A stretch of 64,000 bases of DNA from Bacteroidia bacterium (lineage in GTDB: Bacteria > Bacteroidota > Bacteroidia > NS11-12g > UBA9320), in NCBI GenBank assembly GCA_965655315.1, contig CBFHGJ010000009.1, positions 26,008 to 90,007 on the forward strand, written 5' to 3'. The translations under genes were made by a program, and so were the position numbers. Position 1 is the stretch's first letter, and each line of letters begins with the position of its first letter. This document shows positions 2,287 through 9,152 of this stretch, piece by piece. Below the pieces are notes generated by a model that ran no database searches, was not told where the DNA came from, and was given only the letters and a program-made list of their open reading frames with translations.

Positions 2287-3549
2287 TTAAGAAGAGGTAG
2301 CTTTACTGTTTGATAATGAAAGCCTTAACATTTCTAATGCAGCAAATGCGGTACGCTCAATTACCTGCTCTCTGGTGCCATGAAATTCGTGCCGCTTCAC
2401 TTGAACAAATCCATTTGGACCTGCAATTCCTATATAGACTAGACCCACCGGTTTGGTTGCTGTTCCTCCAGAAGGACCAGCTATTCCAGTAGTACTTATG
2501 CAGTAATCTACATCTAACTTTTCTCTTGCGTTAAGTGCCATCGATTTACAAACCTCTTCACTGACAGCTCCCAGCTTGTTAAGTGTATCTTGATTGATAT
2601 CCACTATTTTTACTTTAGTATCATAGGCATAAGAGATTATACTACCCTTATAATAGGCAGAACTGCCAGGCACAGCTGTGATTTTATGAGCAATAAAGCC
2701 ACCCGAACAGCTTTCACACGTTCCTAATGAATTCCCACTTCTGTGTAGCAAAGCACCCACTAATTCCGCTAGGTTTTTTTCTCCATCAAACCATACGGTC
2801 CCTATGATCTCTTTGATTTGATCAAAAAAATCATTTACCTCTTCACGAAGTTTAGCTTCTGAAATACTTATTGATTTACCACTTAGCCTTAGTCGTACAA
2901 GGTTGAGGTGAGGTAAGTATGCAAGTTTTAAATGGCTAGGTAAACTGTCCTCTATTGCCTCAATCTGATCTGCGAGCAATGATTCTGGTACACCGACAAC
3001 GGTAATGGTATGATGAACGATGGAGTAATTATCACCTATAGAATTTAGCTTCTCAAAGACCATGCGTTCCATCATATCCTTCATTTCATAAGGAACACCG
3101 GGCATACTTACATAGACCTTATTGTTTTCTTCAAAATACATTCCGGGAGCTGTACCTTTATGATTGAGAATTGGAGTACAATTTTCTGGAACTAATGCCT
3201 GGTCTATATTGGTTTGCAGAATAGATCTACCTTTTCTAGACAAAATGGCTTTTATATTGTCTAAGGCTTCATCGCTTTGAACCAATTGGGTGTTGAAATA
3301 GTCAGCTAGTACTTTTTTAGTGATATCGTCCTTAGTAGGGCCTAAACCACCAGTTATTAAAATAACATCTGCTCTGGATTCAGCCAGTTTGAGTGCGTCA
3401 ATTATTGAACTTTGTTTATCGTTAATCGAAGATATTTGAATGACTTCAATTCCATATTGGTTAAGTCTTTTTCCTAGCCATGCAGAGTTTGTGTCTACCG
3501 TCTGACCGATTAATATTTCATCTCCAATTGTGATTATTTCAGCAAGCAT
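2287..3549 (-). CDS. cinA: competence/damage-inducible protein CinA (MoCF-like N-domain + CinA C-domain)
   Basis: 420 aa; N-terminus MLAEIITIGDEILIGQTVDTNSAWL and C-terminal CinA-type domain (ESCSGG...AGPSGGT). Confidence 0.85.
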   Translation of the reverse strand: MLAEIITIGDEILIGQTVDTNSAWLGKRLNQYGIEVIQISSINDKQSSIIDALKLAESRADVILITGGLGPTKDDITKKVLADYFNTQLVQSDEALDNIKAILSRKGRSILQTNIDQALVPENCTPILNHKGTAPGMYFEENNKVYVSMPGVPYEMKDMMERMVFEKLNSIGDNYSIVHHTITVVGVPESLLADQIEAIEDSLPSHLKLAYLPHLNLVRLRLSGKSISISEAKLREEVNDFFDQIKEIIGTVWFDGEKNLAELVGALLHRSGNSLGTCESCSGGFIAHKITAVPGSSAYYKGSIISYAYDTKVKIVDINQDTLNKLGAVSEEVCKSMALNAREKLDVDYCISTTGIAGPSGGTATKPVGLVYIGIAGPNGFVQVKRHEFHGTREQVIERTAFAALEMLRLSLSNSKATSS

Positions 3550-3597
3550 TTAATCTATTAACAATTTTAAAATTATTTTCGCCGCAAATTATATAAT

Positions 3598-3927
3598 ATG
3601 AGGGAAGCAAAGGCAAATTTAGCAATCAATAACTTACTAAAAGAGGTTACTTCTTCGTTTGATTCAGACAAGGTGGTTGCTCAGCTGCAAGAAATTAGAA
3701 CTATGGCCTTGGAAGAAGAAGATCCTACCGCCGTAAAGATATGCAGACTTGCTAGTGAATACATTTCTGAAAATGGAAACTTTGATCTTGGCTATGTAGC
3801 TGAGGAAGAAATTGGGGATATGTCGGACATGGAGTATTTATTAGAGCTTATGCTAAAAATAGATAAACCTGCAAATCGTGAAGAAATCCAAGAAATTAGA
3901 GATAAACTGAAGGGCGAACTTTACTAA
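3598..3927 (+). CDS. hypothetical small acidic protein
   Basis: 109-aa ORF, ATG start, divergent from cinA; strongly acidic (E/D-rich); no recognisable motif. Confidence 0.4.
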   Translation: MREAKANLAINNLLKEVTSSFDSDKVVAQLQEIRTMALEEEDPTAVKICRLASEYISENGNFDLGYVAEEEIGDMSDMEYLLELMLKIDKPANREEIQEIRDKLKGELY

Positions 3928-4000
3928 GTTCTTATCCCAGACTTTTTTGTAAGGAATGAATGATTACTTCGTTGCATTCATTATTAAATAAATTTTAAAA

Positions 4001-4552
4001 ATGAAGAAGTACTTGTTAACCATAGGCATAGTCAGCCTCACCCTTTTATCTTTTGGTCAGTATCGTGCCTCTACAGGTATAGCAGTAGGTGAAAATGCAA
4101 CTATGTTTACTGTAGGAGCAGAGAGAGAATTCAATATAATCTCAGACAAGATTCACATAAACCCTAGTGTAAGAGGGAATTTCTACACCGGTGAAAATTT
4201 AGATTTCATAACAGTACCAGCTGAGTACACTGCCAATGACGAAGATGTTGAAACGCTTTATAGCGTAGGGAATAGCTCTTTCAATTTTATCAATGCTTAT
4301 GTTAGGCTTGGGTACGACATTACCGAGAAATTGGCCATTAGTTTTGATATTGATCTTGTCGGACTGACTTTTGGTTCGGTAGAGAACACTCTCTTGCTAG
4401 GAGAAGGTGAGAGTAGCAAAAATGATAATGTCACAGCAACACCTGTCAATGGAGCTAGTCCTACAACCATTAACTATTTAATTATGGGAGATCTAGATAA
4501 CGGTAGTTTGAATTCGACACTAGAGGGTTTGAGACTGTTATCGAATCTTTAG
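4001..4552 (+). CDS. hypothetical secreted protein, outer-membrane beta-barrel-like
   Basis: 183 aa; N-terminal signal peptide (MKKYLLTIGIVSLTLLSFGQ); alternating hydrophobic pattern typical of beta-strands. Confidence 0.5.
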   Translation: MKKYLLTIGIVSLTLLSFGQYRASTGIAVGENATMFTVGAEREFNIISDKIHINPSVRGNFYTGENLDFITVPAEYTANDEDVETLYSVGNSSFNFINAYVRLGYDITEKLAISFDIDLVGLTFGSVENTLLLGEGESSKNDNVTATPVNGASPTTINYLIMGDLDNGSLNSTLEGLRLLSNL

Positions 4553-4553
4553 T

Positions 4554-5690
4554 CTATTCTTTAATTATTTTGAAAGACTGATGAATATTTCCGTCTAATT
4601 TCACGAAATAAATTCCATCAGATAAATCTTGAATATTTACAACTGATTTTTCTTTTTCAATCTTACCTTCAGATACTTTTTGTCCAGAAATTGATGTGAT
4701 AGCATAACGATTTCCAATAAATTCTGAACCTACACTAATATGAATAACATTTTTAACGGGGTTAGGATAAACTTTAAAATTTTCTATATTATTTTTATTT
4801 ATTATTGATGCTGTTGAACATTCAATTATTCCATTTATGTCATAGCGAGAAACGAATTGCCAAATCTCTGAGCTAGCATCAATTGTCATATTTCCAAAAC
4901 TTCCAGGCCAATCATGTCCTCCTCCTATCACCTTTAATTCTTCCACATAGGCGCAACCTGAGGCAGTTGACCAAGTATATCGCTCTACAGAGGGGCTTAC
5001 AGAAATCATAGTAGCAGTTGTATCACAATTATTGTGCGTTGCCCAGTATCTATGTGTTGCCGCTGCGGAGAGATAATATTCAATTCCGCCAAAGGTAATA
5101 CCATTATATGGAGATGTAAAATCATTAGAGCCAAGTATTGTAAGAACTCCAGTGGGGTGCACCGGAGAGCAAAAACTATTTGGATTGGCTTGCGTGGTTC
5201 TTGCTACTGGAGCTGTAGCTGCAATTCTGCTATTGAGTTTACAAGCAAGCTCAAAGGACATATCACCTCCTAATGAATAACCACAAGCATATATTCTATT
5301 CTGGTCTATTTGGTAATTACTGGCAATCGTATCTATCAATGAACTAAAAAAGGGCACATCATCAAAAGTGCCTGGGACTTTAGTAATCCAGTTTAAAGAG
5401 TTCCCATCGCTTGGATCTGGGCGTGCCTGAGGATAAACAACAATAAAGTTTGCCGTATCAGCGATTGGTCTCATGTCAGATATAGCCTGCCAACTTGCAA
5501 CCCTGTCATTACCTCCATGAAAATTGAAAAGTAATGGAAATTCAGAAGTCCCGTCATAACTGGACGGGATATAGATGCTGTATTCCCGGGTAAGACCATC
5601 AAAGTCAATGGTTTTATTGATAAAAGATTGAGCTGATGAAAGAAATGAATTTAATACAACAAGAGTCAAAACAATGATTTTTATGTTCAT
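4554..5690 (-). CDS. secreted esterase/PHB-depolymerase-family alpha/beta hydrolase with T9SS type-A C-terminal sorting domain
   Basis: 378 aa; signal peptide; GxSxG nucleophile elbow (CGYSLGGDMS); C-terminal ~80 aa (KVYPNPVKNVIHISV...GIYFVKL...KIIKE) matches Por/T9SS CTD. Confidence 0.75.
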   Translation of the reverse strand: MNIKIIVLTLVVLNSFLSSAQSFINKTIDFDGLTREYSIYIPSSYDGTSEFPLLFNFHGGNDRVASWQAISDMRPIADTANFIVVYPQARPDPSDGNSLNWITKVPGTFDDVPFFSSLIDTIASNYQIDQNRIYACGYSLGGDMSFELACKLNSRIAATAPVARTTQANPNSFCSPVHPTGVLTILGSNDFTSPYNGITFGGIEYYLSAAATHRYWATHNNCDTTATMISVSPSVERYTWSTASGCAYVEELKVIGGGHDWPGSFGNMTIDASSEIWQFVSRYDINGIIECSTASIINKNNIENFKVYPNPVKNVIHISVGSEFIGNRYAITSISGQKVSEGKIEKEKSVVNIQDLSDGIYFVKLDGNIHQSFKIIKE

Positions 5691-5745
5691 GATAATTTAA
5701 GGATTTATTTACTTGCATTTCTGAAGTAATATATAAATTCGTATA
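5527..5745. repeat. source copy of segmental duplication (esterase 5' end + divergent promoter), paralogous to 6479-6680
   Basis: About 90% nucleotide identity to 6479-6680 by eye, collinear. Confidence 0.7.
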
Positions 5746-5763
5746 AATTAAAGTATAAAAAAA

Positions 5764-6375
5764 ATGAAAAAAACAATTTTATTATTAATCACAGTATTTG
5801 CTATTTCGTTAGCTAATGCTCAAAACGAAACGAAAGAATTTGCGAATTATTCGGTAGGGGTATCCGTTAGTCCATTTGGTGGATCGTTGGGTTTTGGCTA
5901 CAATCTATCTACAAAAACAACATTTCAAGCCTCAATCGGAGGATTTAAAGGATCTGCACCAATTTCACCCGAATATGGGAATGATGAATACGATGTAGAA
6001 AATTCGTCTTCATGGGTTGGGATGTTTGTAAATCACAGACCATTTGAAGATTCGGATTGGTTCAGGGTAGGAACTGGATTTGGTGTAGGTAAAATACAAA
6101 ACGAACTAACCAATACGAACAATGCAAGTGATGTTTATCATGCCAATTATGAGGGAAATATAGTTGCTTATGTTGGAGTAGGAGTAGGTAGCCGACCAGT
6201 TAAAGGGTTGCAATTTGGATTGGATGTTGGAGTGCTTTCAACAGGTGGAGCAACAGTATTTGCAGACCGAGACAATCTTGCACCCGAAAATGCTGTTCTC
6301 AAAAAAATTGAAGATGATTCATTTTTTGGATCTCTATTACCAAATGTTCAGCTTAACATAAGCTGGGGTTTTTAA
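5764..6375 (+). CDS. outer-membrane beta-barrel protein (small OMP)
   Basis: 203 aa; signal peptide ending ANAQ; Gly/aromatic-rich beta-strand pattern; C-terminal ...ISWGF with terminal Phe typical of OMPs; followed by terminator. Confidence 0.6.
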   Translation: MKKTILLLITVFAISLANAQNETKEFANYSVGVSVSPFGGSLGFGYNLSTKTTFQASIGGFKGSAPISPEYGNDEYDVENSSSWVGMFVNHRPFEDSDWFRVGTGFGVGKIQNELTNTNNASDVYHANYEGNIVAYVGVGVGSRPVKGLQFGLDVGVLSTGGATVFADRDNLAPENAVLKKIEDDSFFGSLLPNVQLNISWGF

Positions 6376-6396
6376 AATTTATTTAAGTTCAAATCA

Positions 6397-6441
6397 GGGC
6401 GGAATCGTGAACTAAAGTTCAATGATTCCGCCTTTTTTTTA
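6397..6441 (+). terminator. rho-independent terminator
   Basis: GGCGGAATC ... GATTCCGCC hairpin followed by T8 run. Confidence 0.8.
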
Positions 6442-6478
6442 TTGTTTTTGCCAATCAATTGGTCAATTCATGTAACTT

Positions 6479-6640
6479 AAAAAATAATGGAAATTCAGAA
6501 GTGCCGTTATAACTAGGCGGAATATAGATGCTATATTCCCGGGTAAGACCATCAAAGTCGATGGTTTTATTGATAAAAGATTGAGCCGAGCAAAGAAACG
6601 AATTCAATACAACAAGAGTCAATACGATGATTTTTTTGCT
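6479..6640 (-). pseudogene. relic of esterase N-terminus (start-less, 3'-truncated paralog fragment of 4554-5690)
   Basis: See repeat 6479-6680; the frame is intact but there is no start codon and the homology ends abruptly. Confidence 0.6.
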
Positions 6641-6680
6641 TGCATTTCTAAAATAGTTTATAAATTCGTGGAAATCAGAT
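6479..6680. repeat. duplicated copy of 5527-5745 (esterase N-terminal coding end + divergent promoter), contains internal ~30 bp deletion removing the esterase start codon
   Basis: Collinear ~90% identity to 5527-5745; minus-strand translation retains esterase residues 7-59 (IVLTLVVLNSFLCSAQSFINKTIDFDGLTREYSIYIPPSYNGTSEFPLFF) but no start and a stop soon after. Confidence 0.75.
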
Positions 6681-6690
6681 TAATTAAACA

Positions 6691-7158
6691 ATGAAAAAAA
6701 TTTTTCCATTACTTCTTTTGTTGACAACGATAATTTATGTTGGATGTTCTGAAGATGATGATTCGCCCGCACCCAAGTCTTCAGAGCAAGCATTTGTTGA
6801 TTATTCTGGGGCTTACCTCGGCACTAGATACGTAAATTATTACTCTACTCAAACAAATTCACTTTTAGATTCAAGCAGTTTCATTGATACTATTTTTGTA
6901 TTTAAGCATAAAATAAATAGTGACAGTTTTTTTACTTGGGGATATTCTGATGAATTTCAGAAGAGTGTTAATTGGGGGAGATTAAATAGTGATGGTTCTT
7001 TTAGGAATACCGGAAGTTGGTATGATGCAAATGCTAATGATTCTTTTACACAACAACATAATCATAGAATTTCAAATGATACGTTTTATGAAGTTATTGA
7101 AACTTTTAGAACAAACTTCCGATGGCATGGTGAGGGGGTATTCATAAAAATGGAGTAA
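6691..7158 (+). CDS. hypothetical lipoprotein
   Basis: 155 aa; signal peptide + lipobox-like LLLLTTIIYVGCSEDDD; preceded by the duplicated promoter segment; followed by terminator. Confidence 0.55.
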   Translation: MKKIFPLLLLLTTIIYVGCSEDDDSPAPKSSEQAFVDYSGAYLGTRYVNYYSTQTNSLLDSSSFIDTIFVFKHKINSDSFFTWGYSDEFQKSVNWGRLNSDGSFRNTGSWYDANANDSFTQQHNHRISNDTFYEVIETFRTNFRWHGEGVFIKME

Positions 7159-7180
7159 GTAAATGACAATATTATAAGAA

Positions 7181-7212
7181 AAGGGGACATTTTAATGTCC
7201 CCTTTTTTTATT
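7181..7212 (+). terminator. rho-independent terminator
   Basis: AAAGGGGACAT tttta ATGTCCCCTTTTTTT hairpin + T-run. Confidence 0.8.
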
Positions 7213-7229
7213 CAATTAGTTGATTGTGC

Positions 7230-7391
7230 TTATTTGATGAGGTATACAGGACCTTTATAATAATGTATGTTTCCTCTAAAATCGAGGGCTTTTATGTGGT
7301 ACAAATAATACCCAGATATTGCGTCTTTACCGTTCTGAGCAAAGACTCGATAGGTTCCATATATATGAGGTATGGAAATTATTTTTAACAT
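7230..7391 (-). pseudogene. remnant of T9SS type-B (gliding-motility-associated) C-terminal sorting domain
   Basis: Minus-strand frame translates ...GTYRVFAQNGKDAISGYYLYHIKALDFRGNIHYYKGPVYLIK*, resembling the conserved tail (IFNRWG..VF..YYYVI...kGtVtLIR) of type-B CTDs; only ~54 codons open, no upstream body. Confidence 0.5.
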
Positions 7392-7563
7392 TTTTGTTTA
7401 TGGAGTTGGCGGACTAATTGTTTTGTATTTTTTTTGGTTAGCCCTAAACTATTTTGGGGAGTGGTTAGAAGATAAAACTAATATGCAATTTTTATTAGGT
7501 TTTGTTCTCATAGGTTTGTTAGCAATTTTTTCATTGAGTTTATACGTTTGGTTAGTATTTTGA
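7372..7563 (+). CDS. hypothetical small membrane protein (two predicted TM helices)
   Basis: 63-aa ORF, ATG start, very hydrophobic; could be spurious. Confidence 0.25.
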   Translation: MEIIFNIFVYGVGGLIVLYFFWLALNYFGEWLEDKTNMQFLLGFVLIGLLAIFSLSLYVWLVF

Positions 7564-7804
7564 TTAATTAGTTAATGAATATAATCTGACGCTTCTTGTC
7601 CAACCAACATCAAACCATAGGGCTATCCCACTATTCTGAGCAAAGGCTATGGAAATGAAACCGATATTCTTAAAGGATAAGGGGGTGTTGAATATGAAAA
7701 ATAGTTCGGATTTTTTTAGGATTTATCTGTAAAACGATACCTAAATCGATACCCTGAGGCATAAAAAAAACCTACAATTATCTGTACAACAGTTAATTAC
7801 AGGT

Positions 7805-7979
7805 TTTAATGGGTAGGCTTGACTTACAATCTAACCAAAAAGTTTGCTATCGATGCAGGTTTTGGTCTCGTGTTTACTGAGGTTACATCGGATATAGCTG
7901 TTGGTTATGATGGAAATGATCGATTTAGAAATAAGAACTTGTTGGGATATTTAGGAGTCTCATACGGTTTTGGGAAGTA
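7805..7979 (+). pseudogene. C-terminal remnant of an outer-membrane beta-barrel protein gene
   Basis: Start-less frame translating VGLTYNLTKKFAIDAGFGLVFTEVTSDIAVGYDGNDRFRNKNLLGYLGVSYGFGK*; typical OMP C-terminal strands; no start codon, no N-terminal part. Confidence 0.45.
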
Positions 7980-8074
7980 ATTATTGCCAATGAAATAATT
8001 TAGAAAAGCTAGTCCTAAACGGCTAGCGTTTTTTATTTGATAATTCTCAGGTAACTAATACCTTCGTCTTCGAT

Positions 8075-9152
8075 ATGACTAGTGATCAGTTTAACGACAT
8101 TAAAGGCCGTACAGCTAAGCTGGCGGACTATCTTTGACGTAGAAAAGAATCTTGCTCTCATAGCAGATGAAGAGCAGCAAACGCACGATCCATCCTTCTG
8201 GGATAATCCAAAAAAAGCAGAAATACATCTCAGGAATATCAAGAAAAAGAAAATCTGGACTGATTCTTGGGTTGAAATCAATGCTGGAGTTGAAGACATA
8301 GAAGTGCTTCTTGAATTTAAAGAAATGGGTGAAGATGTGGATGAGGAAATTGAGACCAAGTATCAAGGTACACTTCAGAAGTTAGAGAACTTGGAATTTA
8401 AAAACATGCTTAGCGGAGAAGAGGATCAATTGGATGCAATTCTGGAAATCAATGCTGGAGCTGGAGGTACTGAGAGTAACGATTGGGCAGCTATGCTGAG
8501 CCGAATGTACACGATGTGGGGTCAGAATAATGGATATAAAGTCGAAGTTCTAGAGCAAGTCGATGGAGACGTTACAGGTATTAAGTCTATTTCCTTACAG
8601 TTTTCAGGAGATTTTGCTTTTGGTTATTTAAAAGGAGATAATGGTGTTCATAGATTGGTCAGAATAAGTCCTTTTGACAGCAGTAACAGGAGACATACGT
8701 CTTTCGCGTCAGCTTATATCTACCCTGTGGTAGATGATAGTATCGAGATTGATATTCCTTGGGGAGATATTGATATGCAGACTTCTCGAAGTGGTGGAGC
8801 AGGAGGTCAGAATGTAAATAAGGTGGAGACCAAAGTTCAGTTAACCCATAAACCGACAGGCATCATGGTGGTATGTTCTCAAGCCCGTTCTCAACTGGCT
8901 AACAAGGAAGAAGCCATGAAGATGCTTAAGTCTCAATTGTATGATATTGAGCTTCGTAAACAAACTGATGCTAGGGCCGAAATAGAAAATGGCAAGATGA
9001 AGATAGAGTGGGGAAGTCAAATAAGAAATTACGTTATGCATCCCTATAAATTGGTTAAGGACGTGCGAACAGGAGAGGAGACAAGTAATGTGCAAGCCGT
9101 GATGGATGGAGATTTAGAAGCTTTTCATAAGGCGTACTTGTTAGGACAGTAA
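8075..9152 (+). CDS. prfB: peptide chain release factor 2, with programmed +1 ribosomal frameshift (join 8075..8134, 8136..9152)
   Basis: ATG 8075 gives [20 protein letters not shown] then UGA; canonical shift site CUU UGA C at 8132-8138; +1 frame continues [15 protein letters not shown]... to TAA 9150-9152 and contains RF2 motifs (SPF-like region, GGQ in [16 protein letters not shown]). Confidence 0.95.

Follow-up and report, generated by a model that had tools for sequence, protein, structure and literature searches.

A short imperfect repeat lies within a 64,000-nt stretch of contig CBFHGJ010000009.1 (assembly GCA_965655315.1), which comes from an uncultured marine member of the Bacteroidota and is referred to here, at its full length, as the window. 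The repeat ties together three genes: est, which encodes a secreted esterase-like protein on the minus strand; X, which is divergent from est and encodes a small outer-membrane protein; and Y, which lies after X on the same strand and encodes a lipoprotein. Copy A of the repeat is formed by the 5' end of est and the region between est and X, and copy B, which lies directly before Y, is formed by the truncated 5' end of a second est allele and a similar upstream region. On balance, copy B is best read as the scar of a rearrangement, now serving as the control region for Y, and it would derive from a diverged est allele that was functional until the event.

The repeat and the genes it joins

A repeat search returned two matching blocks, a 170-nt ungapped block with 89% identity (5516-5685 against 6469-6638) and an 83-nt block with 76% identity (5702-5784 against 6629-6711). 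Alignment with MAFFT connects both blocks through a single 26-nt gap in copy B, the counterpart of which is located at ~5682-5707 in copy A. With the gap left out, the copies are 86% identical over 228 aligned bases; the est-coding part is 89% identical and the intergenic part is 76-79% identical. A blastn search of the whole window with copy A returned copy A itself and copy B only (E = 1e-60). Copy A (5516-5773) spans the 73-nt region between est and X, with est codons 1 to ~58 on one side of it and the first 10 nt of X on the other. Copy B (6469-6700, ~230 nt) features the est stump, an upstream region of the type that holds the candidate X promoter, PX, and the start codon that it has in common with Y. 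The similarity between A and B extends through ATGAAAAAAA, the 10 nt with which both X and Y begin.

An earlier note, written from the letters of the window, had described a collinear repeat of ~90% identity at this location. The repeat search, MAFFT, and the blastn self-comparison of the window agree that it is real. The location was right, with a left edge that was drawn ~10 nt too narrow (5516/6469, not 5527/6479), and the similarity does not end just before the downstream ATGs, as had been described, since it runs on through ATGAAAAAAA. The composition of the segment was described correctly, as the est 5' end (to codon ~55-58) with the divergent intergenic region, placed directly before an unrelated lipoprotein gene.

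The est stump of copy B (6469-6634, minus strand) is a second allele of codons ~4-58, which is open but truncated and is without a start codon. Its translation has the same residue as est at 49 of 55 positions (est residues 4-58), in agreement with the earlier observation that the est reading frame is kept in the copy. The est start codon (CAT, 5688-5690 in copy A) falls inside the 26-nt gap of copy B. The deletion had been put at ~30 bp, and its effect on the start codon was recognized correctly. The deletion site (6634/6635) is specific to copy B, from which the est ATG and leader are gone, and the 26 nt are retained in 5/5 A-type sequences; the bounds of the deletion in copy A are short GATTT repeats. 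The sole in-frame start in the stump is a TTG at 6622. The stump was rejected as a small protein because this internal TTG start would give a signal peptide without a charged N-region.

The window belongs to a metagenome-assembled genome, and the locus is a patchwork in which the closest relative changes from tract to tract, features that would be expected if two strains had been joined at the repeat by an assembly or binning artefact. This explanation is extremely unlikely, as an independently assembled 9.7-kb Logan contig (L001/L070, run ERR15116864) has the same sequence base for base and is identical through both joints of copy B. Additionally, the longest exact run common to A and B, read by eye on the MAFFT alignment, is ~26 nt, less than the assumed assembler k of ~31 and hence not long enough for the repeat to cause a false join, and the exact match at the joint J1, described below, is 8 nt, far under assembler k-mer sizes. 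A tRNA search of the whole window found no RNA gene near the repeat, and an Rfam search of positions 3400-8300 at a permissive threshold found weak terminator-like matches only and no RNA gene by the repeat.

The est gene (4554-5690, minus strand) encodes a predicted secreted alpha/beta-hydrolase of the polyhydroxybutyrate (PHB)-depolymerase/feruloyl-esterase-like type with a C-terminal type IX secretion system (T9SS) type A sorting domain, and it is a recombinant gene, as described below. The sorting domain scores above both curated cut-offs (PF18962, 44.1 bits with a cut-off of 27; TIGR04183, 40.6 bits with a cut-off of 23). The catalytic domain is under the family cut-offs (NF050058, 125 vs 150 bits; TIGR01840, 48.6 vs 107.85), and its best relative in the PDB is the feruloyl esterase 9j07 (E = 8e-18). 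By these profile matches the predicted protein is clearly an alpha/beta-hydrolase related to PHB depolymerases and feruloyl esterases, yet it stays below the PHB-depolymerase family cut-off. The product of X (5764-6375, plus strand) has a signal peptide and is a small outer-membrane beta-barrel of 8 strands, which is 97% identical in amino acids to X of the relative L058. Its AlphaFold model has a predicted local distance difference test (pLDDT) score of 86, and Foldseek matched it to CarO (4fuv, E = 3.7e-7, template modelling (TM) score 0.65). Y (6691-7158, plus strand) encodes a 155-aa lipoprotein with the lipobox YVGC followed by SEDDD, and a small all-beta barrel is predicted for it. The signal peptide ends in IIYVGC, with SEDDD after the Cys, and this Cys is invariant in 12 homologues, which identifies the protein as a lipoprotein. 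The acidic stretch behind the Cys is reminiscent of the surface-export signal of Bacteroidetes (PMC5080379). A Foldseek search of the PDB with the Y model gave no confident match (best E = 7e-3, TM ~0.35). X and Y were found to be unrelated on comparison, and they were ruled out as paralogues. The gene calls of the earlier note, a T9SS esterase gene and an unrelated lipoprotein gene, are borne out.

The region upstream of Y

The contigs of relatives, which are designated by L numbers, reveal the layout from which the window departs. In two contig groups (L062 and L073) the full run is visible and consists of X, a gene for a 1,347-aa HYR/T9SS protein, a gene for a 220-aa protein, Y, and a convergent giant PKD/CHU_C gene; L062 additionally has a partial est upstream of X. 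In the ancestral layout the HYR protein has ~1,350 aa and the protein after it, p220/228, has 220-228 aa. In L053-L057, L065-L068, L071, and L074 the visible part of the run starts at the HYR gene or at the gene after it, and the HYR gene itself is visible upstream of Y in six groups (L062, L073, L053, L065, L071, and L074). The left part of the run is found in L058-L061, which feature the X with 97% amino acid identity and in which est on the minus strand and X on the plus strand are followed, after ~144 nt, by the start of a long HYR-repeat gene. L076-L079 have an upstream same-strand gene, Y, and a convergent gene, and L080 has p198 before Y, the neighbours in L076-L080 being judged by gene size and strand only, not by sequence. 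In 12/13 relative contig groups the gene before Y, in the same orientation, is p220/228 or p198, the exception being L072, and among the relatives read an est/X-type upstream region before Y is found only in this genome. This comparison supports, in substance, the promoter capture or transplant that the earlier note had proposed. The gap between Y and its upstream neighbour in relatives is short (~50-100 nt, same strand), so ancestrally Y closed the same-strand run and was probably co-transcribed with that neighbour.

Neither the HYR gene nor the p228 gene is matched at any place in the 64-kb window. Compared with the layout in relatives, copy B occupies the scar of a ~5-kb deletion in which the HYR and p228 genes were lost. 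The earlier note missed this accompanying deletion, and its description of a plain duplication does not hold, since copy B fills the deletion and features microhomology at both joints. A second large deletion scar is located on the other side of Y, where the last 34 codons of the giant PKD/CHU_C gene remain (7233-7334, minus strand; tblastn 88% amino acid identity, E = 2.5e-13). The giant gene encodes >2,400 aa in relatives, its other parts are absent from the window, and the similarity to L053 ends at 7333. In the exception L072 (3300-4002), a Y that is 85% identical is found without the HYR, p228, and giant genes, in another neighbourhood and with native-type upstream sequence. This arrangement indicates that Y and its upstream genes were separated on two or more occasions and in different ways.

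Both ends of copy B were located to a few bases. At the joint J1 (6469-6492), the sequence that follows X meets est codon ~55 at an exact 8-nt microhomology, TAATGGAA (6485-6492). The homology to the post-X sequence of L058 (L058 7613-7728) reaches 6492 and the homology to copy A begins at 6469, and the joint reads CATGTAACTTAAAAAATAATGGAAATTCAGAAGTG. The octamer TAATGGAA is present in both the ancestral post-X sequence and est codon ~55, amid patchy similarity. At the joint J2 (6688-6701), a PX-type leader is fused to Y at the start codon. Similarity to the native Y locus starts at 6690/6691, and native Y upstream sequences are unrelated to copy B. X starts with ATGAAAAAAAC and the Y genes of relatives start with ATGACAAAAAT, ATGATTAAAAA or similar; as these starts are alike (ATGAAAAAAA in X, ATGA[A/C/T]... 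in relatives' Y), J2 lies within a common start-codon region. In these alignments J1 and J2 are both microhomology joints, and J2 keeps a clean start codon and provides Y with the leader of X.

The consensus of the Bacteroidetes -7 box is TAnnTTTG (PMC7641319). The candidate promoter of X, PX (5713-5741, plus strand), and the candidate promoter of Y, PX' (6640-6668, plus strand), both feature TTG, an 18-nt spacer, and TAAATTCG, and both end 22 nt before the ATG of their gene. The motif, the spacer length, and the ATG distance are exactly equal in A and B despite 79% intergenic identity. With both strands of the 64 kb counted, there are nine occurrences of the pattern TTG-N17-20-TAnnTT[TC]G, and PX in copy A and PX' in copy B account for two of them. 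The strict box TAnnTTTG is located within 120 nt upstream of 11/51 long open reading frames (ORFs), where ~2.3 would be expected from its window-wide frequency, which is a ~five-fold enrichment. The -7 box is conserved in the A-type sequences L058A, L060A, L081A, and L063A. A scan with the sigma-70 consensus was discarded; its sites were no commoner than in shuffles, and as this consensus is unsuited to Bacteroidota the TAnnTTTG analysis was used instead.

X is followed by an intrinsic terminator (6396-6442, plus strand) that consists of a long hairpin and then U8. Its fold has a free energy of -24.1 kcal/mol (z = -5.8), and 0/200 shuffles were equally stable. The terminator is also found after X in L058, and L062 aligns at the same place. 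The strong terminator between X and copy B makes read-through from X into Y unlikely, and since copy B additionally has the same promoter and 22-nt leader, Y is most likely transcribed from copy B. It is likely, judging from these signals, that the promoter now driving Y is the X promoter in its second copy, and most likely Y would be translated from the leader and start context of X and co-regulated with X.

A spacer palindrome, TTTCGAAA, is located in the spacer (window 5718-5727 and 6645-6654) and is perfect in L058, L060, L081, and L063. Neither copy in the window has it intact (TTTCTGAA and TTTCTAAA), and the two have the same G-to-T change in common. The broken palindrome could reflect the loss of an operator or an exchange between A and B.

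Copy B could also be inert debris with a silent promoter, in which case Y would be silent and being lost, or expressed from an unrecognised signal. The locus is indeed losing genes, with the HYR, p228, and giant genes gone and fragments left at 7233-7334 and 7819-7980, and the -7 box has one mismatch. Against this stand the intact Y gene, with a ratio of nonsynonymous to synonymous divergence (dN/dS) of 0.22 vs L053, the exact retention of motif, spacer, and ATG distance while the intergenic region is otherwise 79% identical, and the clean start codon that is preserved at the joint. An inert scar is therefore very unlikely, and Y appears to be still under selection.

The region downstream of Y features several smaller elements. 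A hairpin with a T-run (7183-7210) was judged a terminator by eye; it is 100% conserved with L053, and in relatives it is common to Y and the convergent giant gene. A 112-nt segment at 7614-7725 is 84% identical to intergenic sequence 3' of est in L048 (2081-2192), on the opposite side of est relative to the window, and has no Rfam match. A short ORF (7819-7980, 53 aa, ending in GYLGVSYGFGK) resembles the C-terminal part of an outer-membrane barrel, with its last strands, and may be another gene fragment between Y and prfB.

Age and source of copy B

The earlier note took the repeat for a recent event, a fresh copy of the resident segment. In the est-coding part, identity is 88.9% between B and A, 89.5% between B and L058A, and 95.1% between A and L058A. 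Synonymous divergence (dS) is 0.39 between A and B, with a dN/dS of 0.10, and 0.30 between B and L058A; it is 0.13 between the A of the window and L058A and 0.067 between X and its L058 counterpart. At 5 synonymous sites copy B has the base of the outgroup L063, and the A of the window, L058A, L060A, and L081A share another base, which places B outside the clade of A and its orthologues. Copy B has 10 private changes in codons 4-53; 8 of them fall at third positions, the amino acid changes in 2 codons only, and no stop arises. The probability of this pattern or a better one under simulated neutrality is 1e-4 to 1e-3. The third-position bias, the lack of a stop, and the position outside the clade indicate that B diverged inside a working est and was truncated only recently. 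By these substitution patterns, neither a newly made copy of the resident A nor a stump that has long been decaying at its present site fits well. The claim of a recent copy is contradicted by a dS between A and B (0.39) that is higher than that between A and its orthologue (0.13), by the position of B outside the A clade, and by private changes that carry the signature of a gene under selection.

These data bear directly on an in-situ origin, in which one replication template switch would have copied the resident est 5' end and promoter during the loss of HYR and p228, with copy B decaying afterwards. Such a history has the merit of being one event with no foreign DNA, the microhomology at both joints fits template switching, and A and B have in common two derived bases in the promoter part and a CCCGGG motif. 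It conflicts with the bias of the changes in B toward third positions and synonymous sites without a stop (P ~1e-3), with the retention in B of the outgroup base at 5 sites that have a common derived base in A and three orthologues, and with an A-B dS above that between A and its orthologue, and it is rather unlikely.

The neighbourhood of copy B is a mosaic of four tracts. Tract 1 (4521-5460) is the est body and is 92-100% identical to L048/L051/L052, which have unrelated contexts. Within est, the 3' ~900 nt are of this type, with 97-100% identity in the central 600 nt, and the 5' 225 nt are L058-like. A five-way alignment with sliding identity revealed a clean switch from L048-like to L058-like sequence at a conserved block, GTATCAGCGAT (5454-5466). 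Tract 2 (5466-6480) comprises the est 5' end, the promoter, X, and the terminator and is 93-100% identical to L058. Tract 3 (~6480-6795) comprises copy B and the 5' end of Y and is without a close relative, and tract 4 (~6800-7333), the rest of Y and the giant-gene remnant, is ~96% identical to L053.

The 5' part of Y (6691-6795, plus strand) appears to be of older ancestry, as its dS vs L053 is 0.475 in codons 1-35 and 0.153 in codons 36-155 (120 codons). Six control pairs have like dS in both parts of Y, and the L062-L065 pair is higher at the N-terminus. The raised dS thus runs into the first 35 codons of Y, which copying of A cannot explain, and this result is a further point against an in-situ duplication. 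Copy B and the first ~100 nt of Y look like one ~315-nt patch of older ancestry between L058-like and L053-like tracts, and copy B most likely arrived by recombination as this patch. In the L062-L065 pair, Y has a dS of 1.31 in the first 33 codons vs 0.38 in the rest. The Y 5' end may be a recurrent recombination boundary.

The est gene moves among contexts in other genomes as well. A search of GTDB genomes for est returned 46 loci, of which none has X or Y nearby, and the context is different in almost every genome. The est relatives P0005, P0011, and P0010 (83-86%) have contexts that are all unrelated, and they revealed the est body as a recent recombinant. An IS6/IS240-type transposase gene is located directly 3' of est in L081 (1403-2071). 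The left flank of est differs by lineage, with a LysR gene in L058, an insertion sequence (IS) in L081, and a gene for a 183-aa protein in the window.

The favoured history of copy B, which is also the most economical, has two main steps. In the first, X and Y of a related lineage would have undergone a microhomology deletion from one ATGAAAAAAA start to the other that fused the X promoter and leader to Y, with a full est divergent from Y as the product. In the second, DNA of that lineage would have recombined into an L058-like genome, homologously in Y and illegitimately at TAATGGAA past the X terminator, which would have deleted the HYR and p228 genes and left the donor est stump. A later 26-nt deletion, with ends in the GATTT repeats of A, would have taken the start codon of the stump, and the est body would have been swapped in a separate exchange.

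The sharp left crossover in est also allows the order of events to be turned around. In this reverse history the lineage would have carried est-PX-Y after the X-to-Y start-codon deletion, and a ~1-kb X cassette from an L058-like relative would have been inserted later, by a crossover in the est block 5454-5466 and an illegitimate join at TAATGGAA, restoring X and displacing the native est 5' end as copy B. Positions 5466-6480 are a sharply bounded L058-like island (93-100%) with a clean left crossover, the coding-type divergence of B is explained equally well, and the outcome resembles the displacement arrays proposed for type VI secretion system (T6SS)/Rhs loci (PMC5361080). A second import would be required, however, since Y at ~6800-7333 is L053-like too (dS 0.15, ~96%), and left of the crossover the identity of the est body to L058 falls to 65-78%, a poor basis for homologous anchoring. 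The reverse history is unlikely, and it is rated below the two-step history.

Several observations weigh against the two-step history and the control function proposed for copy B. The branching of B rests on 5 sites in ~150 nt, and two promoter-region sites that are common to A and B vs relatives hint at an exchange between A and B. The donor layout, a full est divergent from Y, was not found in the metagenome scan or in the Y-bearing contig groups examined, a search that covered the Y relatives P0121, P0122, P0123, and P0127 and the window's own Y. The breakpoint inside Y rests on 35 codons, at ~2 standard errors by a rough estimate. L054 and L058 belong to the same assembly (ERZ27296340) and may be one genome, and L053/L054 and L058, which stem from one sample, were taken as one lineage by assumption. 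In step 2, the homologous anchor of ~100 nt at ~80% identity is poor, so the donor fragment must have exceeded the retained part. Finally, the -7 box of the window, TAAATTCG, agrees with the consensus at 7/8 positions (C for T).

Two candidates for the donor were set aside. The est P0028, the N-terminus of which is the best match to B, turned out to be an ordinary A-type allele, and an est-like gene in L075 (28% identity, 1.7 kb from Y) was judged irrelevant as a donor layout. Copy B may also come from a second est paralogue elsewhere in the same genome, of which the analysis covers 64 kb.

Known rearrangements and the cell-surface genes

The event belongs to a known kind of bacterial rearrangement, and no new kind of element is needed to account for it. 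An intragenomic duplication would have B as sister to the resident A and a stump that evolves neutrally; B lies outside the A clade, and 8/10 of its private changes are at third positions. Promoter capture calls for a new promoter-bearing segment upstream of Y in comparison with relatives, and for a correctly placed candidate promoter without read-through; the window has such a segment, and the candidate promoter is in place behind the terminator of X. Homology-facilitated illegitimate recombination (HFIR) leaves an illegitimate joint at short microhomology at one end, which is what is found at J1 (TAATGGAA). From these comparisons, the function is probably promoter capture and the mechanism is probably microhomology-mediated illegitimate recombination of the homology-facilitated kind.

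Promoter capture by microhomology deletion or duplication has been described in laboratory E. coli, where a promoterless transferred gene was activated (PMC6614815); the same work cites the rnk-citT duplication behind the Cit+ trait in the long-term evolution experiment. As in E. coli, a gene of the window would have gained the promoter of a neighbour with breakpoints on microhomology of a few bases, here TAATGGAA and ATGAAAAAAA, the captured unit being the X promoter and leader. Unlike the E. coli cases, this is a natural case in an uncultured marine member of the Bacteroidota, the captured promoter would come from a diverged allele and not from the resident one, and Y was not silent beforehand but lost its same-strand upstream genes. 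HFIR has been described (PMC3240628), and orphan gene-stub arrays at T6SS/Rhs loci have been proposed to arise from it (PMC5361080). The locus is like HFIR in its probable homologous crossover at one end, microhomology joint at the other, and displaced stub by the new junction. It differs in that the homologous side is supported statistically only, and, unlike the stubs of these arrays, the stub here is a 5' end with a promoter, not a 3' toxin/immunity end. The two candidate promoters agree with Bacteroidetes sigma-A promoters (-33 TTG/-7 TAnnTTTG) in the TTG, the 18-nt spacer, and the TAAATTCG before X and Y, and they differ in the one -7 mismatch of the window, the box of L063A being perfect (TAAATTTG).

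A broader reading would make the est 5' end with PX a recurrent recombination handle and est/X/Y a hotspot at which marine Flavobacteriales exchange cassettes of outer-membrane and T9SS cargo genes. The four tracts of different ancestry within 3 kb, the est body that is 97-100% identical in DNA in unrelated contexts, and the IS6-type transposase beside est in one relative fit this reading, which is nevertheless quite doubtful. In such a hotspot, promoter-bearing 5' stubs may be left behind and reused to drive adjoining genes, by analogy with the T6SS/Rhs displacement arrays.

The locus does not overturn current understanding, and its layout is seen in one genome only. It offers a clearly resolved natural example in which a gene that was stranded by an upstream deletion would end under the promoter of its neighbour, with joints mapped to a few bases and the ancestral state visible in relatives. 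A short repeat that resembles a simple duplication can be the stump of a diverged imported allele, which calls for caution in dating repeats by identity. Co-regulation of Y with X, if real, would mean that a probable surface lipoprotein was rewired into one regulon with an outer-membrane barrel as two large adhesin-like genes were discarded. Such rewiring, if true, fits cell-surface genome streamlining in a marine bacterium.

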